Below, in pieces: positions 26,101 through 63,800 of a DNA stretch of 64,000 nt (its first letter is position 1; each line of letters starts with the position of its first letter). This DNA comes from Stegostoma tigrinum (lineage: Eukaryota): assembly GCF_030684315.1 (NCBI RefSeq), contig NC_081368.1, positions 68,355,754 through 68,419,753 on the forward strand, read 5' to 3'. Below the pieces are notes generated by a model that ran no database searches, was not told the origin of the DNA, and saw nothing but the letters and a program-made list of their open reading frames with translations. The position numbers were made by a program, and so were the translations under genes.

Positions 26101-29100
26101 TTGGAAAGAAACCATCTGGTTTGCTAATGCCCTTTAGGGAAGGAAACTGCCATCCTTAGCTAATCTGGCCCACATGTGATGACAGACCCACAGCAATGTA
26201 GTTGACTCTTAACTACCCTTTGGGCAATTAGGGATGGGCAACAAATGCTGCCTAGCCAGTGACACCCTCATCCTGTGAATGAATAAAGGGAAAAAATAAC
26301 CTTGCTACAGGATTCCTAACATCTGACTTGCTCTTGAAGACACTGTATTTATACACCTAGTCCAGTTCTGTTTCTGGTCGATGGTAACCCCCAAGATGTT
26401 GATAGTGAAGGCTTCAGCAATGTTAATGCTGTTGATTGTCAAGGGGCGATGGTTAATTTCTTTATTTTTGGACATGATCATTACCCTGCACTTATGTAGT
26501 GCAAATGTCACTTACTATTTGTCAGCCCAAGACTGGACATTGTCCAGGTCTTGATATGTTTGGGCATGGGCTGCTTCAGCATCTGAGGACTCACAAACGG
26601 TGTTGAATATTGTGTGAACATCAGTGAACATCTTCAACCAACACAACTACCTTCTTTTCTGTCAGGTCTGACTCCAACCAACAGAGAACATCCCCCTTAA
26701 CTCGCATTGGCTCTAGTTTTGCTTCTGATGCCATGTTTAATTAAATGTGGCCTTTCGGCCATGGGCAGTCATTCTCACCTCAGCTGTGATATTCAGCTCT
26801 TTTGTCCACATTTGGCCTCAAACAATAATGAGGTCAGGAGCTGGGTGGGCTTGGCAAATCCCATACTGAACACCAAAGGATAGGTTATTGCTGAGCATGA
26901 ACTGCTCAATAGCGCTGTCATTGGCCTTTTCCATCATTGTGCGAATGACTGACAGGAGACTGATAAAGTGGTAACTGGCTGGATTCAATCTGATTCAGTG
27001 GACACGATAGACCTGAGCAATATTTAACATTGTCAGCTAGCTGCTGGTTTTGTTGCTGTAGTAGAACAGCTTGACTAGGGTACAGCTACTTCTGTCCGAC
27101 AAGTTTTCAATACACAACAAACATAACATAATGCATTGGAGTATTTGTCTATTTGAAAAAGTGAAATTATACTTTCATAACAGAAAAAAACTCTGCTTTC
27201 AAACTTTAGTATCACGATTTATAGCGATTTTAACATCCTGTGCCCTTTTAAATTAGAATAGAAAGATTCTACAGCTTTCCTTTTGTGAAGAAAATGTCAG
27301 CTGCATTGTTTGGCTGCATATTTAGAGTACATTAAGAGAAAAAACACTGTCTTTGTAGTTGCAATATTCTGTCTTGTTTGTGTTTCTAATGGTTGGCTTT
27401 GCAAACTGAGACATTATCAATGTCTGGCTTAGTTTCAAAGGCAACAAAGAAGTTTATTTTAGCAGGGGAGTTGCTCATAGAATGACTGACAGTTTTAGGA
27501 TGTTAACAAAGGATATTGTGTCTTTAAAAATGGCATCTGTGTATATTTTTGATTATGTTACAACTGTTTGGCCACTTGATGAAATTTAATTTTTTAATGT
27601 TTTTTTCAGGTGAATTGTGATAATATAACAGATTTATCAGATTGTGAGAAGTCTTTTCTTTAGGGTCCATTGCAAAGACATTTCTTCTGAAGCTAACCAG
27701 TAATGAATAGTGGGTGAGCAGCTATGGAGGGTACATTGAATGCAGAGAGGGGAATACACAGGGACATGCTGATGGGTTGGATGTGAGGAGGATTGGGAAT
27801 GAGTAAGGATGGGGTAAGGGTTAGAAAGATGAAAACCTAAATCAGAGAGCTGGCCCAATGTCTCAGCAAGTAAGGCAGATCTTGCAACCAGCCCACTTTG
27901 GCATCTGAACTCATCTGAAGCTGGTTCTGGAATAGGAAAAGACAAACACTCTCCGCCTATGTCTTTGGGAGTTGACTATAAAGGGTTAATGTGCAGACGG
28001 TGACAAGATTGGACTTTCAACTTCCATTTCCCATGGTCAACGTAAAAATCCAGACCAAGAGGTCAGTAATAAGACAAATGAGATTAATAGTTGCTGCGAG
28101 CACCAGTTTGAGGGAATAAAAACAATTGTTTTCTTTCTTTTTCTACCCAGAAGTGTTATCATACACAACTGAATGCCTTCCTACCACGAAAATCACTGTG
28201 ATTTCTATTTCCCTTTTATTTTGAAACTAGTAGCCACCACAAGTAGGAACATTAGTTGATCCAATTAAGAGTTTACAAGCAAAGCAAGTTAAGGGCAATG
28301 CAGTTATTACAATGTGAAGGTGAGGGGTGTGGTTAGGGAGAGAAGGAAAGGTTAAATCAAAATGGAGTAGGAGGGGAAAATAAAGCGCTTCAACCTCTGT
28401 GGTGTCCACCACTCCCAAAAAGGCATCAAGAACATTGATGGACACCACATGCTCCCTCTCCAAGGGCATCTGGGCTCAAAAGTAACCACAGAAGAGGTGC
28501 ATGCACTCAGCAGAGGTGCCTGCCTGGACCTGCTGAGAGCCAGCCTGACTAGGCCCAGAAGCAGGCCCACGGGGAAGTCCTTCGATCTCCCCCATTCCCT
28601 CTGCATCGGGTGCCCCAAAGCCAGGAGCATGGGGCTGAAGTGCAACCAAAACACAGCAAAAGGTTTTTCAAATAACTAAAGATGGGGTGCAAACACCCAC
28701 AACTAGTATATCCATGGACTACACATACTGTAAAGTAAACAGTGGAGCAATTGTTTACTTGGTGGTTAAGTTTCTTGATCAATATAACACAAGCTACTGC
28801 TTAATAAACAGACAGCCAAATCAACCTGTACTTCAGTTGCTGTGATCTGTCTGCTCGAAATGGCTGGATAATTCTGCAGAAGAATCAACATATTGCTGCT
28901 CTTGTTACTATTTGGGAATGGCTCAAACAGTTTTGCATACAACTCAGAAAAAAAGTGCAAAAATACTTTAAACAGTGAATTCACTAATTAATTTGATAGC
29001 TTCCTTCTTGGAAGATCGGATGTAAACTAAATTAGCAAATGCAGCACTCACCTACAATTGCAAACTGACTGGTTAATCCTGTAGTGGCAACCATACTAAA

Positions 29101-32100
29101 AAATACAGTGGACCAGAGAGAGGCAATTGGAAGGTGGAGAAGAGCTTCTGGGTATGCTAGAAAGATCAATCCTAAGCCTAGACAGTGAATAAAAGTATGC
29201 AGTGTTATTAATGAATTACAAGGTCATTGGCAAAATGTTGTACCTTATCTAACTTAACAGTAGTGGGGCGCAGTTCTAGTTTGCTATATGCTACTAATCC
29301 CACTATACCCTCTGCCATCGTGTTGGCTGGGACCTTCTGCTGGGCAGTTAAAATGGCTGTCCCCTCCACAGTGCAAACACATTGCAGTGTGCCAGATGCC
29401 GGGAGAATAGTTCCTAACTGACAAATAGCTTCCAGCTAACAGAAAGGGTAGCCATCTCCTACTAGGGCAAGAGGGAAATGTGCTATGTTTCACTGCCCTG
29501 CAGTGCCATGCCTGCCCTTAAACACAACTATATGTCAACTGACACCTTTCACTGCAGAATAGAAAGGAGTATAACTCCTCCAAAATGACCCAAATCTTGC
29601 TTTTGGCATTATATTGTCATTGGGTCCAACATTAAAAATGACACTTAGTCTGAGATCTAAAATGATGTAATTTGAAAATTCTTACATTTCATTTTCAACT
29701 TTCCCTCTGAGACCTGCCCAGAATTCAGGCTGGAATGGAAACCAGTAGATTTTTGGGATCAGAATTCCAAACTTGTCCCTCCATTCCCTATATCCTTCAC
29801 GAGCTACAGGATGTGTTGAATCACAATTTGACAGATACGTCCTAGGATATTAACATCTCTACATGAAGGCTTACAATACCCGCAACAAAAGGATTTGGGA
29901 GCCTGTGTGATCCCTATCAGGTAAATTAGTTTGTAAATCTCAGAACAAATATTACTTCGGTGTCAGGGACTTTTTGGCACTTACATTTAAAAGGTCTTTC
30001 TACTATCCCTTCATATCCTGTATACCCCTCAATGACCTGTCATATCTCTATGTACCCTATATGGCCCCTTTCCCCTAATTTACTGTATGCTTGCACCATG
30101 CCTCTTACACACTGTCCATTTCCCTTCAATTACCCCGCTATCCTTCTCATGCCCCTGGACATCATTCAAATGCATCTTACCAATACTAACAATGTAAGAA
30201 ACAATGTGTTGTTTCTTTGAAATGATTCCAAAACTGATTAAATCGACTAACAGATTATAAAAACTTCCTCTGCAAGTACCAATTAATAAAACAAAAGGAA
30301 AGGTTAGGCCCAAAACGTCAGCTTTTGTGCTCCTAAGATGCTGCTTGGCCTGCTGTGTTCATCCAGCTTCACACTTTGTTATCTTGAAAGGTTTTTTTCT
30401 CTCTTCTTAACCTTTCTTGATCTTGTCCAAACAAACAAACAAGTGCTTAGAAAATTCAAATACAGTTTGCACTCCCTTTCAAACTGTTTAACTATTCTTG
30501 GCAGTCAACAAAACACCCATAATGGAGATCAAATGGAGAAACGGATGCCTCAGAGGGTATCACAAAGAATGGTTGGTTGAGTGCCAAGACTGGTTATAAG
30601 ACCCAAACCTGTAGGCTAGAACAATAGTTTAGGTTCAAAAACAGATGTTGCTGGAAAAGCTCAGCATCTGTGAAGAAAAATCAGAGTTAAATTTTCGAGT
30701 CCGGTGACTGTTCCTCAGGACTGGTTTAGGTTGTTCTGGTGGAGGAGAAGGGAGAAACATTATTTGTCCCTGAGTAAGCCACCATTGGATAAATCAAGAT
30801 ATGAAAAAAGGTGTGAAAAGTTACAGCTAATTGACTACGCTTTGCAATAAACACCATGGAGACAATTTTAAACTTTGTCTACTGAGTGATAACATGGTAG
30901 AATAGATCTCCTGTCTGTGGCAGACAGCTATTGGGAGTGCCCCATCAGTAAGTTCAAATTGGACTCAAAGGGCCACAGTTCTTCATTAATAAAATATTAA
31001 GTCCTAACCTAAATCATTGGGAAAAATCTAAAAGACAGGTGGAGTGGTCTCCAAACTTTCAGATAGTCCAAAGTAGGGGATATAGCAAATAACCCTGTTG
31101 ACCAAAGGAAGTCAGAATGCCTAGAAGACAAAATGACCAAAAGGTGGAATCAGAGGTCACCTTTGTTAATGGTTAGATAAGATAAAATATTTTAAGTACT
31201 GTAGGTACCTGAATGTGAAACCTCTGAAACTGGTAAATGAATGTGATGAGCCACATGTCCGAGGATGGAAAAGATGGCAAATCCAACCAGCACGCTCGTA
31301 AGACAGTTAAGAAAAGCAACAATGAGGGTATCTGTGAAACAGTCATTCTGGAAGTTGTTATAAGATGACAGTGCTGTTACACCCCCTGGCGACACTGACA
31401 GAGAAATGAAAATTTGAGTTGCAGCGTCTTTCCAAACCTGATAAAATGTAAGATAGAATTAATTGGCAACAGTGATTTTTGGATGTTCCTTTGTGATAGC
31501 TTCACATTTACTGATATTTTACCCCATGCTTTGCCCCTGCCATCCCCACCCCTTGCCAATCTCACCGTGATGTCTCATGAACACTGACTTCAGCACTGTG
31601 GCTGCATTTTCCCATCATGTACACTGGGCCACATCTCCATCGCTCATGCATGTAATTTGATTGCTTGCTCATGAACCATTGTGTGTTTCATATGATTCAT
31701 CCAATTTTCTGGAGCTTCCAACAAACTTCATGGCTTCCATCACGAGGCTCTGTTCTGGGCAGGTATCTGTTTCTCTTGTTTTCTCAATAAATTAAACAAA
31801 AAGCTGTGGGCAACATTAGCAGGAGCTGCCCCAAACCCGGGTCAGGTCACACAGGCCAGGGATCAGCTCCTTTGGCTGAACATCTGGCTTGCAATGCAGG
31901 CTGATGCCATGGATACAGTTCCCACATTGGCTGAGGATAGCATGAAGATCTTTCCTTCACAACCTCTCACCTTATCTGAGGTGTAGTGGCCATTAGGTTA
32001 AACCAGCACCAGTTGACTCTCTGTAATGAAAGAGCATCCCGATGGTTTGGTAAGGCTATGGTGTCTTCACCTCTAGCACACACCCCCCACCCCCCCGCAC

Positions 32101-35100: not shown

Positions 35101-38100
35101 CACACGAGATAGGCTGGTTCGATTGGTCCTGTACTTACTCAAGTTGAGAAGAATGAGAAGGGTATATGAATGAAATGTGGAAAATTCTAACATGGCTGGA
35201 CAGACTAGGAACACGGGGAATATTTTCACTGGTTGGAGTCTAGATCCAGAAGACAAAGTCTCAGGATATGGGGCTGTCCATTTAGGACAGAGATGAGGGA
35301 AGATTTCTTTACTCAAAGTGTCATTGACCCATGGATTTCTCCACCACTGAAGAATGTGGAGGTAAAAATCATTGAATATTTTCAAGAAAGAGGTAGATTT
35401 TCTTTTGGATTCTAAAGACATCAAGGGGTATGGGAAGAAAATGGGAATGTGGCATTGAGATAGAAGATAGGCCATGACCGTATTGAACGATGGAGCAGGC
35501 TCAAAAGACCGAATGACATATTCCTATAGATGTTTAAATGTTCCCCATGTTTAACAATGACATTTGAAGTTGTCAGTAGGTTTCTTACTCTACAGCAGCT
35601 TCTCCAAGAGTAGTGGTGACATTCCCAAGTAATTCCCATCACAAAGAAAATAGCATGCAAGGTGGAATTCATATCTTCCCTCTGCCTTTACAACAACAAT
35701 CCTGAAGTCTCAAGATAAGTGACCAGTGCCACAACATGTCACATTTTTTGACATGTGCTGATCTAGTTCCTGTGGATTAATATGTTCAGTCACTTCAGTG
35801 CTCTAGTGTGGGCTGGGCGCTGGTCTCTAAACAACTTCCAACATATAATACTTTGTATTCTCTGGCTTTTTATGTTATCCGTGAACTCTCTACCGTCTGC
35901 CTCCTTCTAATGTGTTATATCATATCTTGTCAGAATTAATCTCACCTTTCACTATTGTTGCAACACCTCCTTTCTACCAGATTCTCTCGTCTCACCACAG
36001 TTTAGTCTCTTGTGCTGATCAGCTTTTGGACCCATGTCTCAGCAATGGCCAGCACTCCATGTGTCTACAGTTAACCATAATGTATTTGAGTGGTTCCTTT
36101 TTTTGCAGTAATTTTAGTGTGTTTGTGTTTGGGTCATGCACATCCTAAGCTGTCCTTTCACTGTAACATTAATTCACTTTTTTTATTTCATTCTCTTTAC
36201 AGTTTAATCACTTTGCCCCTTTAAGAATAGAACAGAATAGAATAGAACCCCAACAGTGTGAAAACAGGCCCTTTGGCCCAACAAGTCCACACCGGCCATC
36301 AGATCATCACCCCCTCCCCACCAAGACCCATCCCCCTATCACCCACCTAATCTATACATCCCTGAACACTACAGGCAATTTAGCACGGCCAGTCCTCCTA
36401 ACCTGCACATCTTTGGACTGTGTGAGGAAACCGGAGCACCCAGAAGAAACCCAAGCAAAGTTTTCCTTTTTCCTATAGTAAATAACTCACAATTTCAGAT
36501 TGCTACTCTGTTCTCTATGGCTACTACTACACTACCTTTTTAACTCTGTCCTCCTCTAACTTACTACATCAGAAGTCGAACAACCCCAGCTTACAGTCCA
36601 ACCAGTGTACTTGAGATTACAAACTTTTGGAGTGCTGCTACTTCATCAGATGAAGTTGCCAAGTGATTTCAAATGAAGCTGCTATAAGCTGGTGTGGTGT
36701 GACTTCTGACTTTGTCCACCCCAGTCCAACACCGGCACCTACACATCCAACTTACTAGTTTAAAGTCCTCATGACTGTTTTATTTCTATTTTTTGCCTGG
36801 TTCAGGTGGAATCATTCCCAATAGATTCATTCTGTCTCAAAGATGGTTCCAGTGTCTCATGAAATGGAACCGTCGCTCATTTGCCATGCCTTTAACTTTA
36901 TGTTCACCTCCCTGGCCTGGTTATCCTGAATCCAATTTGTGCGGCCTTAGAGATTACTTAAAGACACTAACCTTTGAGATTCTGTTCTTTACTGTATCGT
37001 CTAGCTTCCCATATGATTCAAATTATGCCTCATATTCCCTATATTGTTGGCTTATGGACCACAATGATTGAATTCTCCCCTTCTGCACCAAGGTTCTTTC
37101 AGTCTCTTGCAACACTTAACCACAGAAGTGGTCCACTGATAAACACAATTAAGTACATTAATCTTTAAGAAATGTGATTGAATTCCATTATCCTGGTGTG
37201 CTTACCTGAGCATCAGCCAGTTTGGAGAAGTCTGAATGGCTTCCAATGTAGTATTTAATCCCTATATCAGCTCCCTCCAAGGTAACACCTCGGATCACAA
37301 GTAAAACTAGGGAAGCATATGGGACTGTCACAGCAACATAAGACACCTGACATAGAGGGTAGATTGTTAGACTTTTCTGTATTTTTGGTACAACATTTAC
37401 AATACTGAAACCAATTGAGTGAAAATCTAATATGATGCAAATCAATGCAGAGAATGAAGCAGAAACCAAGTACAATAATGCCATGAAGTGCATATTTGAT
37501 ATGGAGTGCAGATTGATTCCAAACAACAGAGTATTATTCTAATATTGATCAGTTTATTAACAACATATTAGCATGCTTTATGCATCAAAGACAGTGAAAG
37601 TTGATTCAAAAATTTCAATGCTTCTCCGGTAGTGTTTAAAAATTTAGTTCACTTGAATAATATCTCAATGAGCACAATGACTGAAGATTACCAAACTGAT
37701 AACAATCATCTTGATTTAATTTATAACTAATCAAGAGGTCGGCAACATAGTCACAGCTGCCACAGAAGCTATTTAACTCAGCAACACTCTACACATGGCA
37801 ATGAGATAAAGCAGGCCTGAGCGAGAACATTTTCTCAGGAAGCATTTTTTAACAATCCATAATTGATTCAGGAAGCATATTTCTGAGTTGCTTTGCTATT
37901 AATTTTGCCTTACTTTTGGTCAGCTGCTCATATAATAGTGTATCTCTCCCTCCCTTGTATATGTGGATTGTTGATTGGAATGATATAAAATGAGATATTT
38001 GCAAAAATTGCAGAGGGTAAATTATGTTCATTTGTCAAAAATATGGGAGTATGCAGCTACAAAGAGAAATTACAAGAAAATGCCTTGTTTTGATGGACAG

Positions 38101-41100
38101 AGTATGCACAGCAAAGTCTCCATTAGAGGGGGTGTTTCTACAGTATTTGAACACATGATTAACTTCTGAGCTGATTTTGCAAAAGAACTTTGATGTTCAA
38201 GGCAGCACTACATGAAAGAAAAAAGATTGCAGAATGATTAAGAGCTGGGTCAACGAAGGACAATCCCACCGGTAGTCCCACTACACATGACAATGGCAGT
38301 GAATGGAGTTCAATCTCAGGGTCTGGGTCAGAAAGACACAGCCATTGATTTGCTAGGGCATCTTTAGCTTCTACATGCTAGAAGGCTGGCATACTTGACA
38401 CGAAGTGGCACAATCAACTGTGCCGTAAAACTTGACTGGATCTCTTTGCAGAGAAATGCAGTGAACTAACCATGACGAGGCACAAAAGATAACGCTCACT
38501 CGAGTCAGTGCCTCATCGAAAAACGTCTGAACTGCAGCACACATTACTTATCGGCGGAACAAGGCTTGTATTTGGGGCTCATTGTGTGCTTGTTTCTGAG
38601 TTCTATTCCTTAAAACCGGACCCCTGTAGCTGTGGCCAATGTAAAAACGTTGTTTCAGCTACTCCAAAATTCATTTTACCTTTCCAGAAATTTTTATTCC
38701 TTTGCACAGCACGAATAAAACTATTATCCAAGTTATGAGTAGGCAGACAGCTAGATGCCAGATGACCTTCCCAGTCTCATTAATTGAACTTGAACGATGT
38801 AAAACTGTAACACTGAATGAATGAAGACAGAATTGGTTAGAGTAGTATTTATTACATTGAAGAATAAATTCTGTCCCTGTTCGAGGCTAAGTTCTCAAGG
38901 GAGCACTACAGCTTGTCTTGTTTCTTGGAAAAGAACATCACAAAAGAATAATAAAAATGTGTGAATAATTAAAGAAACCCAAAGGAAGACAAATTTTAAT
39001 CTAGCATGATTACCAATGTGAAGTATAAGAGAGACAATAGACATGTATATAGGTACCTGTATCACTGAGTGGAGCTAGAGGCACAGACATGAGCCAGCTG
39101 AGAGCCACTTATCAGGAACCAGACACTGGGAGCTGGGGGCTACATTATACCAACAGAAAGCCTGCAAAGCAGTTGTGATGCATCATGTTGCAGGAGGCTG
39201 GAGGCTCACTGCAATGTGTGAGCCACTGTTCACTGCTACCATTTTTCTTTAATAGTAAGAAACATGGTCTAGTGTGTTACAGGAAAAACACTTGCCTCAT
39301 CTAACTAGAAGAATCTCTCGTGGATAATGAGGTACAGCTTATTGCATGCCAGCAACTAGTTACACATTATATTTATAAGAAAGACTGATTTGAGGCAGAC
39401 CAGATATTAGGTCTTGACATCCCAAGGGGTTCAGTCCAGATGACATCGCCACAGTGGGTAGTGTATTGGACAACGATCAGTATTTACCTATTCAGGCCCT
39501 GAAGCACAACATGGAAGCAGTGAGAATTCGGTGATTCTCATTATAAAGGTAATCACCTCAAAGTCACATATCTCGAACGCTTGAATTCCAAATATAATGT
39601 GCGAGGCCATTGGGAACATATCCAAAAGGTGACAGCGTCGAGGCAAGGCCTCAGTATGTGTAGAGAAGATCAGGCTCTTCATAGCCAGAGTGGAGGAAAG
39701 GGTACCTCTTGTGAAAACTCCTCAGAGAGTAAGATCGAAGATGAACTCTGCTTTAGGGCTCTCAGATGACTCAAGTAATTTTAGAGCGATATATATTATA
39801 CTCTATCTGCTATACCATCTATCAGTGTACCTCTAGAATCTGGGGAGCTCTGGAAATTCAAAATCAATGCAGACATTGTATGCAGCCATTTGTTTTCACC
39901 ATTTATGCAGCAAAAATTTCACAAACCATTGTTTTTAAACAGTACAGTAAACAGCAAGCCCAATTTATCTTTCGTACACAAATTAAAAATGGGGTTGATA
40001 TCTTCCGTACACATATTAAAATTGGGGTTGATTTTCCTGTAAAATACCATTGCATTTGTATTTGAAAATAAGGCAGCGAAAGGAATGAAAGAACGTGATA
40101 AGTTGACACCACTGTCAATTTCTGAGTGCAATTTCATTTAGACTCCATTTGTAACTATGCGGAGGCCCTTTTTTATATGGTGACTGGGAGTATTGTGGCT
40201 CACAACCCCTCATATTCTCCCAGCTTTCAAAACTGTATGTAGGAAGATGTGTTACCAATGAAAACTCTTCATTGGATCTTCAACTGTAGGTCAGGCAAAG
40301 CAAACATTTTTGTGACAGTTATTCTTGGGTCTGGGGCCTTGTAGTCTTACAAGTTGATTACAAGATACCCACTGATCTCATGTGCTGCCCTTGACAGAGC
40401 CTCCACAGTTCCTGAAATTTTGGCTACACTGTACAATTCCTTCAACCCATAGACTGCTGAATTGCTTCTTGCAGATATTGTCATGCTTTCACAGTTTACC
40501 AAACTTTTGAAGAGCTGGAACCTCCAGGCCAAAAATTGGATCTGGTCCTACACCGATCATCAAGCGAACTGGTTCTACACTGATTCTATGATCACCTGGC
40601 AAACCATAGCCATCCGGTGCACAATAATGCTTAATGCAGAAATCAGTTCCCACCCTCAAATCTCTACATTAGTATTTGCATTTCGGTGAACTGACAAACA
40701 GTAATTCCAGAGCCCTAGCTTCACTAGCTTTTATAGTACCCACTTTGAGTAGAATGTGTACTCACTCCCAAAAGTGTTCACTTCGGATCTTATGGAATGA
40801 AGAATTCTGACAGTTTTTATTTCCATTAATTTCTGTAGACGATGTCAAGTTGCATGTGGGATCTGAAAAATGATAAATAATGCCTAAAATATTCACCTCG
40901 GGAGAACATCATTGGTCCTGTGCTGCATTCAGACTTTCTGATCTGTTCAGACTTTTCTACTCATTCTGTTTTATTATATGGTAAATGTGAATCAAATAGT
41001 GATTCAATCAGCCTCAACAATTAGTTGCAAAAAGTATTTGTTGAGATCATCCCGTTAAATAAAAATCAAATCATTTTTAACTCTCCTAATGATAAGATAA

Positions 41101-53100: not shown

Positions 53101-56100
53101 CTGATTGGTGGAGTTGCTGACAGTGAGGAGGATAGTCTGACATTGATCAGCCAGTAAATTGGGCACAGCAGCAGTAGACAGAATTTTATCCTGATGCGTG
53201 AGGTGATGTATTTTGGGAGACCTAATAGTAAGAAAATATACACAATGAACGGTTGGTACCTGGGGAGCACTGAGGAGGAAAGGGACCTTGGTGTACAAGT
53301 TCATAGATCCCCGACGGTGTCAGCACAGATAGACAGGCAGAAGGCACATAGGATGCTTGCCTTTATTTGCCAGGGCCTAGAATATAGCAGCAAGAAAGTC
53401 TTTTCACAACTTATTAAAATATTGGTTAGCCCATAGGTGAAATATTGTGTGCAGTTCTAGTTGCCACACTAATGGAAAAACGTGATTGTTCTGGTCAAGA
53501 TGCAGAAGAGATTCACCAGGATGTTGCCTGGGATGAAAAATCTCATTTATGAGTCTGAAAGGATTTAAAAATTAACTTGTCGATATTTCTGTACTTATGT
53601 TGAATTATTTTAATTCATAGTATGACAGAAAGACTTTCTGGATAATAGAGGGAATGTGTTTACGCTGGGACAGTAAATGAGCAAGCACATGCATTTGCTG
53701 GGTAACAAAGTGTCTAAAATCTTCAATTTATGTCAGCCTAATCTCAACTGTAATTTGTAGTTGGATTAAATGTTTAAATTGCTGCTTGGAGCATATTCAT
53801 TTTCAAGGGACACAGTGAAAGTGCAGGCTAATTAAGAAGTGGCTGGAACTGGATCCTCATTAACTAACAAAGATAGGTGCTTTGTTTAGGGAATGTGTAT
53901 TTGTAACCAAATTATTGTAGCTGAGCACTATAATGAGACTTAGAACAGAGCTCTAGAATTGAGCATCTCAAGGAGATCAGCAGTAAAAGGAAAAAGAGGT
54001 GTTTGGTTGATTTTTGCATGAACAGCAACTGACTGGTGAGTAGAATTAGGGAACAGTTATAATCTTTAAAGTGAAAATAAGGCTTTCACTTTGTATTTAG
54101 GTCTCCAGTCTCTTTTTGCTACTTTTTTTTTCTTCTGTTGTTTTAAAGCACAGGTATAACAATGATACTAGTGCATTATAAAAAGAGAAAGGTATAAAAT
54201 AAAGCGGGGATCTCAGAGGCTGCAAAGTCAATAAGAAACTTAGAGGGAACACTATGAACTGAATGCTGTCAATTGTCTTTTCATTCACAGTTAAGCAGTA
54301 CCACTGCTCAGACCAAACAATTAGATTGTGCTAAAATAAACAAACATATGCAGATCATAAAAAATAAAAACCAAAAGAACTGCGGATACTGTAAATCAAG
54401 AACAAAAACAAAGTTGCTGTAAAAGGTCAGCAGGTCTGGCAGTAACTGTGAAGGAAAAGGCAGAGTTAACATTTCCGGTCTGGTGTCCCTTTCTCAGAAC
54501 CCACAGATAATACTGAAAAGATCCAGGCTGTTTTATTTACAGTGTTGTTGATTGCTTTAAAATGTTATTGGCTTTGACTTTAGGTTGGGGTCAGCTGTCA
54601 TAGTGGAATTTGTAACAGCTGTCAAAATGTGAGCAAAGTCTTCACAACAGGTTGTTAGATGCGGATTAGCTCTGAAGTTCCTCATGGGCTGAGAGGGACT
54701 AAAATCCACATTGGCTGAAATTGTACATTAATTAGTGTATAAGCAAGAGAACTTGAACAGCTTCCCTTGCAATGTTCATACCACACTTCACAAGAGTTTT
54801 AGGCAATGAGTATCAGCTCAGCAATGTTGAAGGACTGGCAATCTATATCTGTGCCAGGAAGATTTGAAAGAAACCTGAACTTAATGGTTTTCTAGAGAAA
54901 GATGATTGAGGGGAAGATGCAGTGGCAGTAACTTTCTGTTCAACTTACATACTATAGCAGTGGCATGCTGGCGTTGGAACAGGTAAGTATCAAGTCCGGC
55001 AATGTTAGCAATGTTTGGAAGGAAATAGATCCCAAGAGGTGACATCTGTGACAACCAGAATTATAGATATTGTCCATTATCTTGTTGGTGTCAGTAATAG
55101 CTTCATTACACTACTATATGATAACTCCTTGTAGGGCATCACAAATATACCAGTATTACTTCACACTCTGACATCTTCAGCCTACCTCTTTGTATTTACG
55201 GAAGCATTATTTATAACCTTTCTGTGGGGAATCAATACCAACAGTTTCTCAACCAAACAGAATGATAAATCACCAGAGGCAATGGCTTTATACATTCTTG
55301 AAATTATCACAGTACCTGTGGGAGTCTTGCGGCAGATTTTATCATTTTCCCCCCAACTGTAGCATTCTTGCCATGGCAGAGGTGTTTGGAAGGAAACAAA
55401 GAAGTAGAATAGGCAGTAGGTAACAATACAGTTGTAATATATGCCTTGAAATGTTGACGCAAAAAAGCTCAGGAGTCCCACACCTTCAATTGTGAACAAA
55501 AAGGAGTTCAGAATAGAATAGTAAGGACAAACCCTTTAATATTCAAAATTGTGCATGCCGGTCAGACTAAACAGATTTATTCTTTTGCAAATGGTTACTT
55601 CTAAGAGAGGCAGTGAGGACTCAAATAGTACTTGTCAGTTTACAGTCAATTCAGTACTTTCTGAAATGCTGTCACTGTTTTAACATGGAAAACTTCATAT
55701 CTGATATGCACACAACAAATTCCAATAGAGTAGAAACATGGAAAATAGGAACAGGACTATTTAAGCCTGCTCTGCCATTCAATATGATCACGGCCGATCA
55801 TCCTATTCAGTCTCGATTCCCACTTTCTCCCTATATCCTTTGATCCCTTTCAGCCTAAGAACTACATCTCGCTCCTTCCTGATAACAATGTGATGATCTG
55901 TTGTTGAACTGCTGTTTAAGGGATAAGTATCGACCAAGGACAGTGGGAAAACTCTGCAACTCTTCTCCAAAATATTATTATATAATCTTTTACCCAAGAA
56001 CGTTGACAAGACTTCACCTCGATGTCTCATTTGAGAATGATACCTTTGACAGAGCAGCATTCCCTCCAACTACCAGATTACAGGTTTAACACTAGTTAAA

Positions 56101-59100: not shown

Positions 59101-61520
59101 GCTGTTATTGAATGGCAGAGCAGGCTGGAAGGATTGGGAGGTCCAACTTGCTTAAATGTTTGGTGGCCACTGCTTACACTGGCACTGCTACAGTTCAGGA
59201 GCTGGCAGCTCTTTGGTTAGCCAGCAGTTTTGGAGGTGAATCATCCTGCCTCATGGAGAGCAAAAGCCAAGACCACCCATCAGTTCACCATTGCCACACT
59301 GCACACTGCCCAGTTATACCAGGCAGGCTCACCACGTGATGTCTATCCCCATCTGCTAAAACAATGATGCTAAGCGTTTGACAGCTATCCCATTCCACTG
59401 CATTCCCAACTGCCAGAAAGTATCTGGGGCTGGTGGTGGAACAGGACGTAAAATTTTATTGTTCCCAAAGGAGTTTAGTATAATTGTAATGGAAAATGGT
59501 CACAAAATTTGATCTTTCATATTCTCAACCTAGCAGTGCTCTAAGAAATGGCACGGAGCTGGGAGTCTAACACCTCGTGCTCCCAATGCCATACTGCCAG
59601 TGTATGGGGCTGATATCCTGAGGCACTGGGAATGTATCAACACACCTGGAACATGTGTTTGTAAGAGGTTCATGGCTTATTGTTTGAAGTCTCACAGAAG
59701 TAACAGATACCTCAAGGAATCTCACGTCCAAAGCAATTTCAAAACCATTGTTTGAATAGCACCTGAGATTGTGTTACTGCCTGTCAACACTGACCTTGTA
59801 AGATGGGCACAGCTTTCCACACTTGAGCAGGCCCGAGGCTGGCAAACTGCCCCAAAGCCGACTCCATGAAAAACATCGGCATCCCAGCAAGTACCATCAT
59901 GATGATGTAGGGAATTAAAAAAGCACCTGGAAGACAATAGTTAGAGCAGAGAAAGGTTACTGTGGCATAGAATTTTCACAACTGTAGGTGCACTGGCAGA
60001 GTAGGCACTCTCTCCGAAACTGCAGCCTTGGGATAGAGGCTGTGTTATAGTTTGGATTTCACCAAATTTGAGCTGGGTGTAATGGTCAATAGGTGGGTCA
60101 GGCCAACCCTGGTTTGGTTAAGAATAGTCCAGTGACTAAGCAGTAGGTAAGTGGTAACAAGGCCAACACAATTGGCCACTAAGCCAAACTGTCAAGGTAA
60201 CAACCTTTTAAAATGCATGACGCATTGCATGCAGGAAAGGAGTGGGAAGTAACTCAGAGCTGCGCGCTTGTGTCATTTTGGCCCATAAATTCTACTGAAT
60301 TTACACAGCCTCCGTATAATGGAGCAAGGGGAGAATAATGACAGTGCCTTTATGGGCTTGGAAACAGGTAGCAGTTAGCACCACATGCCTTCCCTGTCAC
60401 CTACTGACACAGGCCCATCCTTTCTGATGCCCTCCCCCCTGCTTTAATGCTAGGGAGTTGTTCAGCAAGCCCCTTCACTGGCATTGGCACTTGATCTTAG
60501 GAGCATTATGGCACAAGCAGCAATTTGCAGTATCTGACAAGTCTGCCAATTTTATTTTCTAGCTCAAGGCTGTTTGACTTCATGATTTGGCACTTCCCAT
60601 CACAAACTGAACTGCCTTGGGTGGTCACAGAAGACAAAGCCCTGGCACTTCTGTTGTTTTCCAACATGGAAAAACAAATAACCAGTCTGGACTTTCAGAT
60701 TTACAACCTACAATATTACATCCAACACCCAGGCAGGCACCGTGCAAAAAGAAAGGCTTGCATTCACATAGTATCCCTCATAATCTCAGTATTTCCTAAA
60801 GCGTTTCACAACCATTTAGGTACTTTTGAAGTGTAGTTCTGGTTGTAATGCAAGTAAAATGGCACCCAATTTTGGTCAACAAGCCCTTATTAACAGTGGA
60901 CAGATAATTTTCTCATTTGATTAATAAAGCTGTACTTTCCCCTGCTCCCTAAAGCCCACTTCTAGAATTTAGAACCTCCAATCATTCTTAAAACAGAAGA
61001 CCATAAGAAATAGCAACAGGAGTAGGCTATTCGACCCCTCGAGCGTGCCCTGCCATTCAACAGGATCATGGCTAACCCGACATTTCTCATGTCCACATTT
61101 CCACCCTTTCTCCATAGCCCTCGAGTCCCTGGTTGTTCGAGAATCTAACTCAGCCTTAAACATGCACAAGGACTCTGTCTCCATATACTTCTGCTAATGT
61201 TTTACAATATTTTACTGCCTGTACAATTCAGGAATTTATTGTTTGTTTGTTAGTCGAATGTGGGTGCAGCTAAAATTCATAGATTTGGAGCCACGCACCA
61301 GCCAAGGTAAAGATTTTACATTTTATTAAAGATTTATTCAGTTTCATGGTCACCATTATGGAGCCAAGCATTCAATTCCAAATTTCTTTATTAATTAATT
61401 GAACTTAATGTGAATGGTGGGGCTTGTTTTAACCCATGCGGCCAAAGTTTCAATGGCCTGAATCTCTAGATTACTTGTGAGAGATGTTATATTATGTCAC
61501 AGTCTCCCCAGCGGGGTGGT

Positions 61521-61567
<47 letters not shown>

Positions 61568-61836
61568 GTGTGTGTGTGTGTGTGTTGGGGGTGGGGGGGG
61601 GCGTTATGACCATTTTGTCTGTATAAATCAATAAATTATTCCCCTTCATTTGTTTCTTTTTACTGTAAAATTGCTACAGTACCTCCACCATTTTTGTAAA
61701 CCAGGTAAGGGAATCGCCAGATATTACCCAGTCCCACAGTGTAGCCAATCACTGAGAGCAAGTAGTCAGCTTTCAAGGCCCAGGTACCTCGCCGTACATT
61801 CTCGTCATTTTTCTCCTGGTCCTCAGGATTTTCAGT
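6647..61836 (-). CDS. SLC6A14-like: SLC6A14-like (ATB0,+) sodium- and chloride-dependent amino acid transporter, spliced; 13 coding exons traced, first coding exon unresolved
   Basis: Manual splicing gives 609 aa without stops, with NSS/SLC6 motifs ([54 protein letters not shown]). Exon sizes 132/133/141/229/126/119/100/110 match the SLC6A14 pattern as I recall it. Ortholog versus paralog status cannot be settled from sequence alone. Confidence 0.92.
6922..7095. mobile_element. Short palindromic PLE family 1 insertion with 17-bp TSD
   Basis: Inverted arms about 6923-7005 and 7010-7092; TCACACTGTATTCAAAT duplicated at 6905-6921 and 7096-7112. Confidence 0.88.
7260..7700 (+). mobile_element. 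Old CR1 3' fragment
   Basis: LY..LVRP.LE..VQF-like remnants and CR1-type 3' sequence. Confidence 0.55.
7855..8345. repeat. Degenerate C/A-rich minisatellite (cctgctccagctcagcaat-like unit, about 20-25 bp)
   Basis: Repeated ctgctccagctc and gcatcaac motifs. Confidence 0.6.
9192..9372. mobile_element. Older palindromic PLE family 1 variant
   Basis: gaggaacacagcaggccaggcagcatcagag...gttgac versus gtcaactttcctgctcctctgatg...gtgttcctc inverted arms; degenerate CTGAAGAAGGGTC core. Confidence 0.75.
10595..10765 (+). mobile_element. HE1-type V-SINE, 5' part
   Basis: tRNA-like head followed by V-domain-like tttgcatattctcccctgtctttgtgggtttcct...ccaaacatgtgcag. Confidence 0.7.
11030..11326. repeat. 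Compound (CA)n/(CT)n microsatellite
   Basis: Directly visible. Confidence 0.97.
11327..11468. other. Assembly gap (142 N)
   Basis: Run of N. Confidence 1.
12553..13386. mobile_element. Young palindromic non-autonomous PLE family 1 element: tandem 281-bp units plus inverted copy, 14-bp TSD
   Basis: About 12589-12985 is the near-perfect reverse complement of about 12995-13386; internal period 281 bp; TCACCCATAGTTCT at 12539-12552 and 13385-13398. Confidence 0.92.
13014..13041 (+). ncRNA. Minimal type-I hammerhead ribozyme core (identical cores at 13295-13322 +, 12653-12680 -, 12934-12961 -)
   Basis: CUGAUGA-A-[GGGU CCAG GCCC]-GAAA-CG-UC: conserved core boxes, stem II, loopless palindromic stem III, GUC triplet; stem I only about 2 bp. 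Confidence 0.7.
14400..14880. repeat. Degenerate pyrimidine-rich minisatellite (ctgtgctccagaatcttt-like unit)
   Basis: Recurrent ctccagaat and ttccagaat motifs. Confidence 0.55.
14977..15275. mobile_element. Palindromic, partly tandem PLE-like family 2 insertion with imperfect 11-bp TSD
   Basis: Inverted arms; ATTTCCA(A/G)GCA at 14966-14976 and 15276-15286; HHR-like GTT-CTGAGTA-T-GGGTC ACCG GGCCC-GAAACGTT-AAC at about 15138-15173. Related solo copies near 22300-22425, 30640-30720, 47345-47440 and 54365-54500. Confidence 0.75.
15436..15606 (-). CDS. SLC6A14-like: SLC6A14-like exon 13 (TM12), 171 nt
   Basis: ttttttag|CTA...CAG|gtaaga; [57 protein letters not shown]. Confidence 0.95.
15699..15808 (-). 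CDS. SLC6A14-like: SLC6A14-like exon 12 (TM11), 110 nt
   Basis: gttcacag|GG...ACT|gtgagt; [37 protein letters not shown]. Confidence 0.95.
16037..16136 (-). CDS. SLC6A14-like: SLC6A14-like exon 11 (TM10), 100 nt
   Basis: ttttag|TCT...TAT G|gtaagc; [33 protein letters not shown]. Confidence 0.95.
16650..16942. mobile_element. Tc1/mariner-pogo (Tigger-like) MITE, 293 bp
   Basis: TIRs CAGGAAGTTCTTGCTTAATGT and ACATTAAGTGAGGACTTCCTG (3 mismatches in 21), flanked by TA at 16648-16649 and 16943-16944. Confidence 0.8.
17022..18222 (-). mobile_element. Young 5'-truncated CR1 LINE with an open RT C-terminal frame
   Basis: ORF 17109-18245: [48 protein letters not shown]; 3' UTR ending in (TTCTATG)n. 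Confidence 0.95.
18470..18850 (-). mobile_element. Family B LINE 3' fragment
   Basis: Reverse complement of the caccac...gggatgggcaat tail and upstream sequence seen at 46750-47135. Confidence 0.7.
19250..20320 (+). mobile_element. Degenerate CR1 ORF1 (SGNH/esterase-like) and start of ORF2
   Basis: Remnants [35 protein letters not shown], then ..YMNA..V. Confidence 0.6.
22534..22652 (-). CDS. SLC6A14-like: SLC6A14-like exon 10 (TM9), 119 nt
   Basis: tttcaccag|AA...GAG|gtacaa; [40 protein letters not shown]. Confidence 0.93.
23055..23350 (-). mobile_element. HE1-type V-SINE
   Basis: Minus strand: tRNA head (agtggctcagttgttagcactgctgcctcac...gggacccgggttgaattc), V-domain, CR1-like tail cacactgtagggatt. 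Confidence 0.8.
23995..25905 (+). mobile_element. CR1 LINE ORF2 with an internal deletion near 24785
   Basis: [69 protein letters not shown]. Confidence 0.93.
25940..26290 (+). mobile_element. tRNA-derived SINE sharing its 3' tail with the family B LINE
   Basis: A-box tggcctagtgg, B-box ggttcaaatcc, tail gggcaattagggatgggcaacaaatgctgcctagccagtgacacc...tgaatgaataaa; related minus-strand pieces near 10390-10580 and 63440-63520. Confidence 0.8.
26305..27090 (-). mobile_element. Family B LINE RT fragment
   Basis: [29 protein letters not shown]; reverse-complement similarity to 1010-1975. Confidence 0.75.
28240..28700 (-). mobile_element. L1/Tx1-like LINE ORF2 C-terminal fragment
   Basis: [19 protein letters not shown] and [16 protein letters not shown] resemble L1/Tx1-clade ORF2 ends (recalled similarity). 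Confidence 0.55.
29052..29177 (-). CDS. SLC6A14-like: SLC6A14-like exon 9 (EL4/TM8), 126 nt
   Basis: tgtctag|GC...GTA G|gtgagt; [42 protein letters not shown]. Confidence 0.95.
30305..30385 (+). mobile_element. PLE family 1 terminal fragment
   Basis: taggcccaaaacgtcagcttttgtgctcctaagatgctgcttggcctgctgtgttcatccagc. Confidence 0.8.
31209..31437 (-). CDS. SLC6A14-like: SLC6A14-like exon 8 (TM6-TM7), 229 nt
   Basis: ttttatcag|GTT...TCA G|gtacct; [76 protein letters not shown]. Confidence 0.95.
31860..32072 (+). mobile_element. Probable old tRNA-derived SINE
   Basis: tRNA-like head and SINE-like body; family not identified. Confidence 0.4.
33270..33690 (-). mobile_element. CR1 3' fragments and tail
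   Basis: Reverse-complement CR1 3' coding remnants; gaatccctacagtgcag tail. Confidence 0.6.
33718..34390 (+). repeat. Cluster of four co-oriented, about 90-120 bp tRNA-derived short elements
   Basis: Each has ...tcccta(c)...GGTT(C/G)AAG(T/A)(C/T)C..ctgctcc...ataacatctctgaacaggtt..ttagaaaa; copies at about 33718, 33838, 33946 and 34272. Confidence 0.7.
34730..35530 (+). mobile_element. CR1 LINE 3' fragment
   Basis: [28 protein letters not shown]; [14 protein letters not shown]; CR1 3' UTR. Confidence 0.85.
36226..36455 (-). mobile_element. HE1-type V-SINE 3' part
   Basis: V-domain and CR1-like tail with (TTCTA)n on the minus strand. Confidence 0.8.
36570..36750. mobile_element. Degenerate palindromic PLE-like family 4 element (related copy at 63200-63397)
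   Basis: agaagtc..acaac.ccag.tta.agt versus ctataa.ctggtgt.gtgtgacttct inverted ends; shared gactttgtccaccccagtccaacaccggcacct tail; decayed CTGATGA...ctccgaaa core. Confidence 0.6.
37206..37346 (-). CDS. SLC6A14-like: SLC6A14-like exon 7 (TM5), 141 nt
   Basis: tgtcag|GTG...CAG|gtaagc; [47 protein letters not shown]. Confidence 0.95.
38680..38812 (-). CDS. SLC6A14-like: SLC6A14-like exon 6 (TM4), 133 nt
   Basis: cattcag|T...AAG|gtaaaa; [44 protein letters not shown]. Confidence 0.95.
40766..40862 (-). CDS. SLC6A14-like: SLC6A14-like exon 5 (EL2), 97 nt
   Basis: tttttcag|AT...TGG GA|gtgagt; [32 protein letters not shown]; phase 1 in and phase 2 out bridges exons 4 and 6 exactly. Confidence 0.85.
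41300..43342 (+). mobile_element. Penelope-like retroelement (RT plus GIY-YIG endonuclease), 5'-truncated and frameshifted, ending in a family 1 terminal repeat
   Basis: [39 protein letters not shown], then [31 protein letters not shown] and [18 protein letters not shown]; terminal repeat 43218-43342. Confidence 0.92.
44461..45153. mobile_element. PLE family 3 insertion with inverted terminal repeats, GIY-YIG remnant and 9-bp TSD
   Basis: CAACTCACT at 44452-44460 and 45154-45162; arms about 44500-44700 and 44950-45150; remnant [33 protein letters not shown]; minus-strand HHR-like core at about 44543-44575. Confidence 0.78.
46135..46441. mobile_element. Young palindromic PLE family 3 insertion with 13-bp TSD
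   Basis: AGATCATCTAACC at 46122-46134 and 46442-46454; inverted arms about 46173-46296 and 46320-46444. Confidence 0.88.
46368..46401 (+). ncRNA. Minimal type-I hammerhead ribozyme core (family 3)
   Basis: CUGAUGA-U-[GUUACC UAGAAU GGUGAC]-GAAA-CG-UC with 6-bp stem II; the mirror copy at 46215-46248 (-) has C3 changed to U. Confidence 0.7.
47475..47770 (-). mobile_element. CR1 3' end
   Basis: catagagtcatagag tail; reverse complement of the 57850-58160 type sequence. Confidence 0.8.
48189..48312 (-). mobile_element. PLE family 1 solo terminal repeat
   Basis: Similar to 12553-12680 and to the reverse complement of 43218-43342. Confidence 0.75.
48430..51080 (-). mobile_element. Decayed Gmr1-like Ty3/gypsy LTR retrotransposon internal region (gag, protease, integrase)
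   Basis: Minus-strand remnants: [21 protein letters not shown]...VADDYEL (gag), CSYC zinc knuckle, [18 protein letters not shown] (protease), [35 protein letters not shown] (integrase). Confidence 0.8.
48885..49163 (-). mobile_element. HE1-type V-SINE inserted into the gypsy remnant
   Basis: tRNA head (cactgctgcctcacagcaccaggg), V-domain, CR1-like tail. Confidence 0.85.
51130..53550 (+). mobile_element. Degenerate CR1 LINE ORF2
   Basis: [64 protein letters not shown]. Confidence 0.88.
55316..55483 (-). CDS. SLC6A14-like: SLC6A14-like exon 4 (TM3/EL2), 168 nt
   Basis: attgaag|GT...ACA G|gtactg; [56 protein letters not shown]. Confidence 0.92.
55730..55885 (-). mobile_element. CR1-type 3' tail (similar piece at 60995-61185)
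   Basis: ataggaacagga...cctgctctgccattcaatatgatcacggc. Confidence 0.65.
55886..56075 (-). mobile_element. Deu-domain SINE (SacSINE1/AmnSINE1-like) central part; a 3' tail-like piece lies at 60750-60910
   Basis: Minus strand gagggaatgctgctctgtcaaagg...atgagac...taaaagat...gaagag...tgtccttggtcgatacttatccct resembles the Deu-domain consensus as I recall it. Confidence 0.65.
56440..58162 (+). mobile_element. Degenerate CR1 LINE (RT to 3' end)
   Basis: [30 protein letters not shown]; 3' tail tgtgactctatga. Confidence 0.9.
59795..59926 (-). CDS. SLC6A14-like: SLC6A14-like exon 3 (TM2), 132 nt
   Basis: cttccag|GT...CAA G|gtcagt; [44 protein letters not shown]. Confidence 0.95.
61522..61585. repeat. 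(GT)n microsatellite, about 32 units
   Basis: Directly visible. Confidence 0.97.
61683..61836 (-). CDS. SLC6A14-like: SLC6A14-like exon 2 (N-terminus/TM1), 154 nt
   Basis: ctcctgtag|ACT...GGA G|gtactg; [51 protein letters not shown]. Confidence 0.92.
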
Positions 61837-62409
61837 CTACAGGAGAGAAAAGAAACAGCATATTCAGGAAGTTAGAATTAAAATTTTTCTTTGCTGACCT
61901 AGGAAAAGAATGCCAAAAGCCCATGCCTTCCCAACACCAGAAACATGACCTTCTCACATTTGGTGGAGGTGGGGCAATCTGCATCACCCCTCCTCTCACC
62001 AACTCAGGGGGGAAGAAAGCTCCTGCACGGAGAGCTGATGGTCCTAGCAATGCCACGAAGTACAGTGGACAGGATCAGTACTGCAAGCAGTCCCCAGGGA
62101 GTCACAAGGAGTGACAAACTCAGGCAGACACAAGGCAATGAGAATTAGGGTTCGCGGAACACATAGCTAACAATTTATCCAAAATTCTGGACGTGAAACA
62201 AAGTACAGAAAGTTCAATTTGGAACCCGGGCATCTATTATACCATAATGGGGTGGGAGAGATCGAAAAGCATCCCAGAAAATCCTGCAAATCCTCCGAAG
62301 TAAAAACTGAAAGCTATAGAAATACTAAGCAGCATCTGAGCAAGGAGATACACGACTAAGTCTTCAAACCAAATTTAACTCTCATTACAAACTGTAAGAT
62401 AAAACTTGA

Positions 62410-63050
62410 GGAGAAGAATATTATTTAAATGGATGAAGACTGCAGAAAGCTGCAGCAGAGGGATTTTGGTGTCCTTGTGCATAAACCACAAAAAGATACT
62501 ACCAAGTTTAATGGGTAATAGGGAACTTGCCCTTCAATCCAAAGGGAATCAAGTATTAAAATAGAGAGATCTCACTATAACTATCCAAGGCACTAGATAT
62601 ACTATAGCTGGAATATTGTGAATTGCTTTGAGCCCTTTTCTAAAGGACGGTATACTGGCATTGGTGGCAGTCCAGAGAAGATTTACTTAGTTGATTCCAT
62701 GTGTGAAGGGATTTCCTCATGGGGAGAGTTTGAGCAAGGTGATTTGGCAGTTAGAAGAATGAGGAGGCATCTAAGTGAAACTTAAAACTCAATTCAAGAT
62801 TTTTAGGTGACATGACAGGGTAATCTGACAGGTCATTTCCCCTAGTAGGAGGGTCGAGCTTCGATGGGCATAATCTCAGAATAAGGGCTTTCAGGTTTAA
62901 AACAGAAATAAGGAAGAATTTCCTCCCTCAAAGGATACTTAATCTGTGGCTTTTTTTTCTTCCCCCACAGTGGGCTGGGCACATTTGAGGCTGGGGCAGA
63001 TTGTTCATTATTAGAGTCAATGATTAACATATCAGCTACGATCTCACCGA
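62410..63050 (+). mobile_element. Old CR1 3' fragment
   Basis: Remnants of DLGVLVH, LY.ALD..LEYC, LVAVQRRFT, FKTEIRKNF. Confidence 0.7.
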
Positions 63051-63524
63051 AAGGATATCTCCAATGTATTACAGTTTAGAGTTCACCATTGTAGAAAGAA
63101 GATCATTCCCATTCTGGAAACGAAGACAGAAATGAAGATGTTGCTGGCTGGACCAAGATTTGTTGCCCACCTTAATTCCCTGCCCCCTCAAACCAAGTCC
63201 GAAGTCACACAACAATAGGTTATAGTTGTACAGGTTTACTTAAATTCACAAGCTTTGTCAGGTGAAGACATAATACTCCAGCTTACAAAGCAGCAGCGCT
63301 CCGAAATCTTGTGACTTTTAATAAACCTGTTGGACTTGTAACCCGGTGTCATGTGACTTCTGACTTCGTCCATCCCAGTCAAACACTGGCACCTCCATAT
63401 GAAGGCTACCTTGAGAAATATGGCAATTTCATACTGCGGTTAATAGCCAACCAGATTTCTATGGGTCACTTTTATACCAGACCAAATAAAGACAGCCTTG
63501 TCTTCTCTAAGGGGCATTTTACTA

Positions 63525-63800
63525 TCTCTCTTTCCAGGCAGGAGTGTGGAGCAGGGTGGCATTAAATGCACCCTGGTTGATATGCAGGCATGGCATGAAA
63601 ATGTGGAGATATGCTGCAAACGTTCCCTCAATGCCCAGCTAGTGTATGAATATAATCAGCATATCATTCTTGTCTATGTTCGGGCAGTCGTCGCAATGCC
63701 TGTATTCTGCTCAATCTCCTTTCCCTTCAGTACAAGTGACCACGAGAGAACGCAGTGTGGCTTCTGGAAGGATGCAGGATCTCCATGGATCACTGGGCCA
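63525..63800 (+). mobile_element. PIF/Harbinger transposase remnant
   Basis: ORF 63498-63842 GGIKCTLV...SLNAQLVYEYNQHIILVYVR resembles Harbinger GAIDCTHV...SLNVQLVCD...I..V.AR; the first catalytic Asp is lost. Confidence 0.5.

Follow-up and report, generated by a model that had tools for sequence, protein, structure and literature searches.

SLC6A14 encodes an amino-acid transporter that is a target for drugs and in cancer, and the basis of its broad specificity is poorly understood. Here we report an intact copy of this gene from the zebra shark, Stegostoma tigrinum, located on the minus strand of a 64,000-nucleotide (nt) stretch of DNA (the window; NCBI RefSeq assembly GCF_030684315.1, contig NC_081368.1, C18:68355754-68419753). 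We describe its structure, the altered residues of its substrate pocket, the elasmobranch subfamily to which it belongs, and the transport function that may be predicted from them.

Gene structure and pocket residues

Thirteen coding exons of the gene lie in the window, running on the minus strand from 61836 to 6647. Every exon has AG/GT ends, and the joined frame comprises 609 codons and a TAA stop, with no internal stop. An earlier note on this DNA had already seen an open frame across 13 exons; its span of 29052-61836 takes in no more than 8 of these exons. The TM6 exon (TM, transmembrane helix; EL, extracellular loop) is 100% identical to that of the Stegostoma record named 'B(0+)-like' (XP_059507245.1, here P0004). 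Residues are given in LeuT numbers, which are documented for V104, F259, T354, S355, N27 and I359 and presumed at the other positions. The features are as follows, all on the minus strand.

61683..61836, minus strand: coding exon 2; N-terminal R5/W8 and TM1 with T22 (codon 61740-61738), G24, N27 and R30; AG/GT, open frame; aligns to P0004 residues 8-58
59795..59926, minus strand: coding exon 3; TM2 with the chloride-site Tyr; the canonical paralog has the same length (132 nt)
55316..55483, minus strand: coding exon 4; TM3 with Q104 (55448-55446), G105 and Y108, and the start of EL2; the canonical paralog has the same length (168 nt)
40766..40862, minus strand: coding exon 5; EL2; 97 nt vs 139 nt in the canonical copy; AG/GT ends and phases fit
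38680..38812, minus strand: coding exon 6; TM4
37206..37346, minus strand: coding exon 7; TM5
31209..31437, minus strand: coding exon 8; TM6-TM7 in a single exon with I253 (31407-31405), S256 (31398-31396), S258, P259 (31389-31387), Y268, N286 and S290
29052..29177, minus strand: coding exon 9; EL4-TM8 with T354 (29073-29071), S355 and I359 (29058-29056)
22534..22652, minus strand: coding exon 10; end of TM8 (D369) and TM9
16037..16136, minus strand: coding exon 11; TM10, containing D404, S408 and a Glu proposed for a third sodium site
15699..15808, minus strand: coding exon 12; TM11
15436..15606, minus strand: coding exon 13; TM12
6647..6796, minus strand: coding exon 14; C-terminal end with the TAA stop
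61837..64000, minus strand: part of intron 1; the start exon likely lies beyond the window end

Exon lengths equal those of the canonical gene except in EL2, which is 42 nt shorter (10 of the 11 internal exons are equal, bar one 3-nt model difference). The four motifs quoted in the earlier note are all present on the minus strand: GYTVGLGN (T22), FQGIYYN (Q104), a 12-residue TM6 motif (I253, P259) and TGLTSQFAI (I359); the motifs that it gave for comparison agree with mammalian SLC6A14 records (P0093, P0058). The residues that it had listed as retained were likewise all found (G24, N27, R30, D404, Y108, R5, Y268, D369, Y47, Q250, S254, S290). The Na1 site (N27, S254, N286) and the chloride site (Y47, Q250, S254, S290) are intact, as is the inner gate (R5, Y268, D369). 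The outer gate keeps R30, D404 and Y108, but position 253 is Ile; this position is F or Y in 193 of 195 SLC6A14-like hits and in 141 of 148 distant representatives, and is aromatic in most orthologs. The Na2 site reads T354/S355 as in LeuT, whereas D354 is found in 172 of the 195 SLC6A14-like hits; D354T, T105G and A258S are changes beyond those given earlier. The Glu in TM10 that has been proposed for a third sodium site is present; ATB0,+ itself carries cationic and dipolar amino acids with 3 Na+:1 Cl-. The mapping of positions agrees with human GlyT2 numbering (F476, S479, W482, D577, T582, I283) and with published SLC6A14 positions (V128, Y321, S324, W327, S427; PMC12655857, used for numbering). 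The canonical ATB0,+ pocket V128/T129/W327/S427 thus reads Q/G/P/I in the window gene.

The SNF domain (PF00209) matched P0004 with 570.6 bits over positions 1-520 of 524. The AlphaFold model of P0004 (mean confidence score, pLDDT, 85.9) has the LeuT fold with 12 TM and unwound TM1 and TM6, and P259 (residue 310) is placed inside the unwound stretch 307-311 that joins TM6a and TM6b, not in a helix. The model of an ortholog is similar (pLDDT 87.9), with GlyT2 as the best fold match (TM-score 0.86). Both models rest on family alignments and thus indicate fold, not function.

A candidate start exon was found at C18:68434393-68434337, about 14.6 kb past the window end, with an ATG, 19 codons and a phase-0 GTAAGT donor. 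It scored 43 against the N-terminus of the Chiloscyllium ortholog, vs 21 for the runner-up (best ungapped match, 82 kb scanned), and resembles the N-terminus of a related contig product (P0388, see below). This is likely the start exon, which would give a protein of 628 residues. Other candidates were rejected: the 7-codon start exon of RefSeq at C18:68420406 is without similarity to orthologs, a candidate at 68443671 that resembles two bamboo/epaulette-shark N-termini shows no donor at the expected place, and the ATGs within 150 nt of exon 2 are in the wrong phase. XP_059507245.1 omits exon 5 (40862-40766) and continues into the intron instead (window 55316-55190); the omitted exon is in phase and 88% identical to that of the whale-shark ortholog. 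The RefSeq version of EL2 was rejected as an intron read-through, and the record is likely wrong both in EL2 and at the start codon.

DNA contigs from four runs of one sample (possibly the source sample, and so not independent) contained no alternative letter across the TM6 exon; the TM8 exon was fully covered in three of the four runs, with a gap in the fourth. An assembly artefact was rejected because orthologs share most of the changes. Intron 10 contains a 382-codon reverse transcriptase frame (RVT_1; window 17112-18257, minus strand) of an ordinary element of the long interspersed nuclear element type, and shorter repeat pieces are dispersed across the introns, including one of very high copy number near 30300-30700.

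The T22/Q104 subfamily and its paralogs

Phylogenetic trees were built from 143, 58 and 64 sequences (the last with LG+G4 and SH-aLRT/UFBoot support values) and were mutually consistent; the sets were subsets of the available proteins, picked by length and species spread. In the 64-sequence tree, which comprised no PROT (SLC6A7), the window gene falls in a clade of 13 sequences with T22 and Q104 (support 100/100), which is nested within chondrichthyan SLC6A14 (99.7/100) and vertebrate SLC6A14 (99.8/100) and is separate from GlyT1 and GlyT2; support is lower (90.9/72) for placing it as the sister group of the other cluster genes. The clade comprises Heptranchias, Heterodontus, Scyliorhinus, five carpet sharks, Pristis, Rhinoraja, two Mobula and one contig product (P0388). 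Sharks and rays are both represented, and the duplication is therefore older than their split; the elasmobranch ancestor is dated to more than 270 million years (My) ago (PMC11979771). The orthologs, which carry only the automatic RefSeq family name 'B(0+)-like', are as follows.

XP_048460906.1: Rhincodon
XP_060688334.1: Hemiscyllium
XP_072450722.1, XP_043561218.1: Chiloscyllium
XP_067903126.1: Heterodontus
XP_038631014.1: Scyliorhinus
XP_067853471.1: Heptranchias
XP_051878247.1: Pristis
XP_072125841.1, XP_062915867.1: Mobula
XP_078267992.1: Rhinoraja

Changes of the pocket occur in two layers, the order of which was read from tip patterns. T22, Q104, Y108 and S256 are invariant in the 12 tabulated clade members, position 354 is T or S in 11 of them, and position 359 is I, L, V or T. 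At position 259, nine members have L, one has M, one has V, and only the zebra shark has P; at position 253, ten have Y or F, one has L, and only the zebra shark has I. The whale-shark ortholog, to which the window protein is 89.2% identical, has Y253/L259. Outside the clade, Q104 was found only in two arthropod proteins among the 195 search hits and 148 distant representatives. As judged from these comparisons, the rebuilt pocket is old and shared across the subfamily, while I253 and P259 are private to the zebra shark. The hallmarks of the subfamily are T22, Q104 and S256, together with an aliphatic side chain at 259 and, in most members, T or S at 354. The window gene itself has Q104, G105, P259 (L in most orthologs), I359 and Thr in place of D354, and keeps G24, Y108, S256 and S355. 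Two further observations concern individual sequences: the Na1 ligand N286 is Asp in three clade members (P0007, P0193 and P0200, from the whale shark and two rays), with Phe at position 21 in ray members, and an unrelated SLC6 protein of a sea spider (P0270, CAM1329523.1) has the same T22 and Q104 pair, possibly a convergent pocket.

Members of the subfamily were seen in 13 named species, some of them as partial records. A search with a clade profile added only P0388, a protein of 629 residues with T22/Q104/S256/L259/T354 that groups with Rhinoraja and is encoded on a contig of 2,315 nt. A 14-exon gene cannot fit such a contig unspliced, and therefore at least this clade member is transcribed. 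The term 'slc6' is absent from the main text of the catshark transcriptome paper.

In the zebra-shark genome, exon searches and sequence stretches revealed three SLC6A14-like clusters on C18, at 64.85-65.34, 68.03-68.43 and 70.9-71.33 Mb. Nine genes, including the window gene, give full open models over exons 2-14 (three of the models with small splice-choice errors); the copy at 64.89 Mb has all 13 exons without a stop, and that at 64.99 Mb has two partial exons. The counts of about 10 open-frame and about 12 broken paralogs are lower bounds, with the stretches between and around the clusters covered in part. The gene with the canonical ATB0,+ pocket, which the earlier note had proposed to look for as a neighbour, is located at C18:65.31 Mb (XP_048400385.1), 3 Mb from the window gene; no second T22/Q104 copy was seen in the zebra-shark genome. 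Pocket composition differs widely from paralog to paralog (residues 21, 104, 105, 107, 256, 259, 261, 354, 355 and 359). By its gene content, the expansion on C18 is a large birth-and-death family. Similar multi-copy sets are present in most elasmobranch records, and Callorhinchus was seen with one cluster of records.

The next gene downstream of the window gene (C18:68.306-68.353 Mb, minus strand; XP_048400834.2) has A256/F259 and falls in a shark clade of its own; paralogs at 65.13 and 65.08 Mb also have Ala256. These Ala256 paralogs (68.35, 65.13 and 65.08 Mb) would be better candidates for the transport of N-methylated osmolytes than the window gene. A second type of rebuilt pocket, with Cys/Ser21, Asn/Asp105, Ser107, Gly258 and Thr355, marks a large subfamily (database proteins P0031-P0204 and C18 paralogs) that has expanded independently in many lineages. 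Another SLC6A14-like gene, with F259 and M359, is located at C23:38.52-38.57 Mb on the plus strand; it may be a copy from the early genome duplications, and its ortholog may be a Heptranchias record from a different chromosome. The window gene stands in tandem with other SLC6A14 copies, and a DOCK-C/D family exon lies between the second and third clusters (C18:70353065-70353181) and was not assigned to DOCK11. Human SLC6A14 is located near DOCK11.

No description of the SLC6A14 expansion or of the T22/Q104 subfamily was found in the literature searched, with subscription journals mostly outside its coverage, and searches of PDB sequences returned no SLC6A14 entry. The expansion supplies named candidates for amino-acid and osmolyte uptake in sharks, for which, to our knowledge, few carriers have been named. 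About 10 open-frame natural pocket variants in one elasmobranch genome, together with a variant fixed for more than 270 My, provide ready-made tests of positions 104, 253, 256, 259, 354 and 359.

Constraint, predicted transport and rival explanations

Selection was estimated with a codon model (GY94/F3x4, own script) on 539 codons of nine paralogs of the zebra-shark genome, in which omega (dN/dS) averages over the whole lineage. The branch to the window gene has an omega of 0.48 (dN 0.233, dS 0.486), and omega = 1 was rejected (likelihood ratio test statistic 27.7, p = 1.4e-7). The recent branch was assessed by protein comparison only, combined with dS values borrowed from the literature: the chromosome-median dS between zebra shark and whale shark is 0.061-0.111 (PMC13100897), and the two are reported in the zebra-shark genome preprint to have diverged 50 My ago. 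Differences between the two orthologs avoid conserved sites (17 of 267 conserved vs 37 of 307 other sites, p = 0.022), while the canonical pair has none at conserved sites; in another paralog pair 57 sites differ. A fully neutral tip since the whale-shark split would be expected to have accumulated 4.1-7.5 hits to stops or splice sites, and none was seen (P 0.016-0.0005, indels not counted). With these values and a pair omega of 0.43-0.78, constraint is therefore real but weak; in the zebra-shark tip it may be weak enough for a recent loss of function.

We consider the chances about even that the window gene belongs, as an intact copy, to an old elasmobranch subfamily of SLC6A14 that is single-copy and has a changed pocket, and whose product would be a Na+/Cl- symporter for a narrowed range of neutral alpha-amino acids, with Lys/Arg uptake lost. 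The alpha-amino and carboxyl groups of the substrate would bind as in ATB0,+. In human SLC6A14, V128F abolishes the transport of Lys and Arg and spares dipolar substrates, and W327 (by a cation-pi interaction) together with S427, S125 and T129 has been proposed as a cationic subsite on the basis of a model (PMC9599917). V128, T129, W327 and S427 are replaced in the window gene and only the S125 position is kept; with four of the five positions altered, the prediction that we hold most firmly is that cationic uptake has been lost. With the Trp and the polar cleft proposed for cationic side chains gone, Lys and Arg would probably be excluded, and a roomier pocket with a Gln104 floor might suit side chains that are polar but carry no charge (Gln, Asn, His, Ser/Thr-like), a point that we hold weakly. 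W to F at 259 widens the pocket of GlyT2 (PMC9317360). In LeuT, the pair F259/I359 serves as a volume sensor that is linked to the release of Na2, and T354 is a Na2 ligand (PMC6689989). In the zebra shark, the aromatic lid would be lost through I253 and the volume sensor through P259, probably with lower affinity or coupling in a protein that is still folded.

Several observations weigh against this explanation. I253 and P259 occur in none of the 343 other sequences (195 search hits and 148 distant representatives), and about 12 SLC6A14-like copies or fragments near the gene carry stops, frameshifts or missing exons. The branch omega of 0.48 is higher than, but not significantly different from, that of the other branches (0.38, 0.32; p = 0.19). 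The zebra- and whale-shark orthologs differ at 54 of 574 sites vs 13 of 574 in the canonical pair, and the pair omega implied by the borrowed dS is 0.43-0.78 vs 0.10-0.18. No T22/Q104 member was seen in 9 of 22 elasmobranch record sets or in Callorhinchus, although partial models rank low and this absence is weak. No experiment on Gln104 is described in the papers examined, V128F being a different change, and the literature searches turned up none on Ile253 or Pro259.

Much of this would also be expected if the subfamily were a real specialised transporter while the zebra-shark copy is decaying, with I253 and P259 as damaging changes fixed after constraint was relaxed, in a hypomorph or young pseudogene whose frame is still open. 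We assign this a minority chance that has to be taken seriously. Apart from the two unique residues, the rough pair omega, the patchy presence across species and the broken copies nearby, it draws on more private changes at conserved sites (K303N, P371S and W140G in model numbering) and on the RefSeq model, which has neither exon 5 nor the homologous start exon and so suggests that no transcript guided it. Decay is opposed by the lack of stop or splice hits, by a tip branch (0.071) equal to that of the whale shark (0.069), and by outgroup-polarised changes of 20 vs 16, with 4 of the 20 at conserved sites; moreover, Pro259 lies within the unwound linker, and SERT has a Pro two residues earlier. 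The claim of the earlier note that this is a neofunctionalised paralog with a different substrate therefore holds better for the subfamily, in which T22, Q104 and S256 are fixed within a fully supported clade (100/100), the canonical copy is on the same chromosome and lineage omega is below 1, than for I253 and P259, which may reflect decay.

An organic osmolyte (betaine, sarcosine, beta-alanine or trimethylamine N-oxide, TMAO) had been suggested earlier as a speculative candidate substrate and is a poor fit. Elasmobranchs use such osmolytes, among the sequences seen the subfamily is confined to them, and its orthologs have Leu259 like the creatine, taurine and GAT3 transporters; the title of one reference names human SLC6A14 as the beta-alanine carrier. 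Against this, S256 is invariant in the clade, BGT1, CT1, TauT and GAT3 have Ala256, and the zebra-shark genome has separate GAT/creatine-type genes. G24 implies a substrate of the carboxylate type, and TMAO lacks this group. Ser256 blocks sarcosine in GlyT2, which accepts it once this Ser is replaced by Gly or Ala, and ATB0,+ has both the Ser and the intolerance (PMC9564218, PMC9317360). S256 thus argues against sarcosine and, by extension, betaine, and G24 against TMAO; beta-alanine would still be compatible. We regard an osmolyte carrier as improbable, its plausible form being one for beta-amino acids or taurine, with sarcosine, betaine and TMAO much less likely. A broad ATB0,+ profile with tolerated pocket changes, in a duplicate retained for another tissue, timing or dose, appears less probable still: V128I changed ATB0,+ little and V128F kept all dipolar substrates (PMC9599917), and vertebrate SLC6A14 hits differ widely in their residue at position 359, but Q104 was found in no SLC6A14 outside the clade among the 195 hits and has been fixed since the shark-ray split, and W259 is lost in every clade member, while canonical orthologs keep V104/W259/D354 almost invariantly.

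A bolder proposal, which we consider unlikely, is that in sharks and rays SLC6A14 grew by tandem duplication into a large family of specialised transporters with individually rebuilt central substrate (S1) pockets. The T22/Q104 subfamily would be its oldest offshoot and would handle a substrate class new to the group of glycine transporters, either amino acids with polar or acidic character or beta-amino osmolytes, with a zebra-shark copy that works without aromatic lid or volume sensor, and the Ala256 neighbours would be carriers of methylamine osmolytes.

Comparison with known transporters

The window gene shares its Na1 and chloride sites, gate salt bridges, S256, TM10 Glu and most exon lengths with canonical SLC6A14/ATB0,+, and its protein is 59.5% identical to the canonical protein of the whale shark. 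It differs in A22T, V104Q, T105G, Y253I, A258S, W259P (L in orthologs), D354T and S359I, evolves about four times faster than the canonical gene between zebra and whale shark, and lies outside the canonical clade, which holds the 65.31 Mb gene; the ATB0,+ pocket is accordingly absent. The closest solved structure is that of GlyT2 (SLC6A5), the best sequence match in PDB (E 4e-173), with which S256 and the TM10 Glu are common; however, the GlyT2 pocket has the glycine-specific I104/W259/T355/T359, and TM6-7 of zebra-shark GlyT2 are split by an intron, unlike those of the window gene.

GAT3, TauT and CT1 have Leu259 as do the T22/Q104 orthologs, but these transporters and BGT1 have Ala256 vs Ser256 in the window gene, and their overall similarity is much lower. 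The combination of Leu or Gln259 with Ala256 that marks the GAT/TauT group does not occur, the orthologs having mostly Leu259, the window gene Pro259 and all of them Ser256; nor does the Gly or Ala256 of the carriers of N-methyl amino acids and betaine (GlyT1, PROT, BGT1, CT1), Ser being present in 12 of 12 clade members. LeuT differs in V104 vs Q104 and in F259 vs P/L259, and the window gene has the eukaryotic chloride site; the T354/S355 pair of the Na2 site and I359 are common to both.

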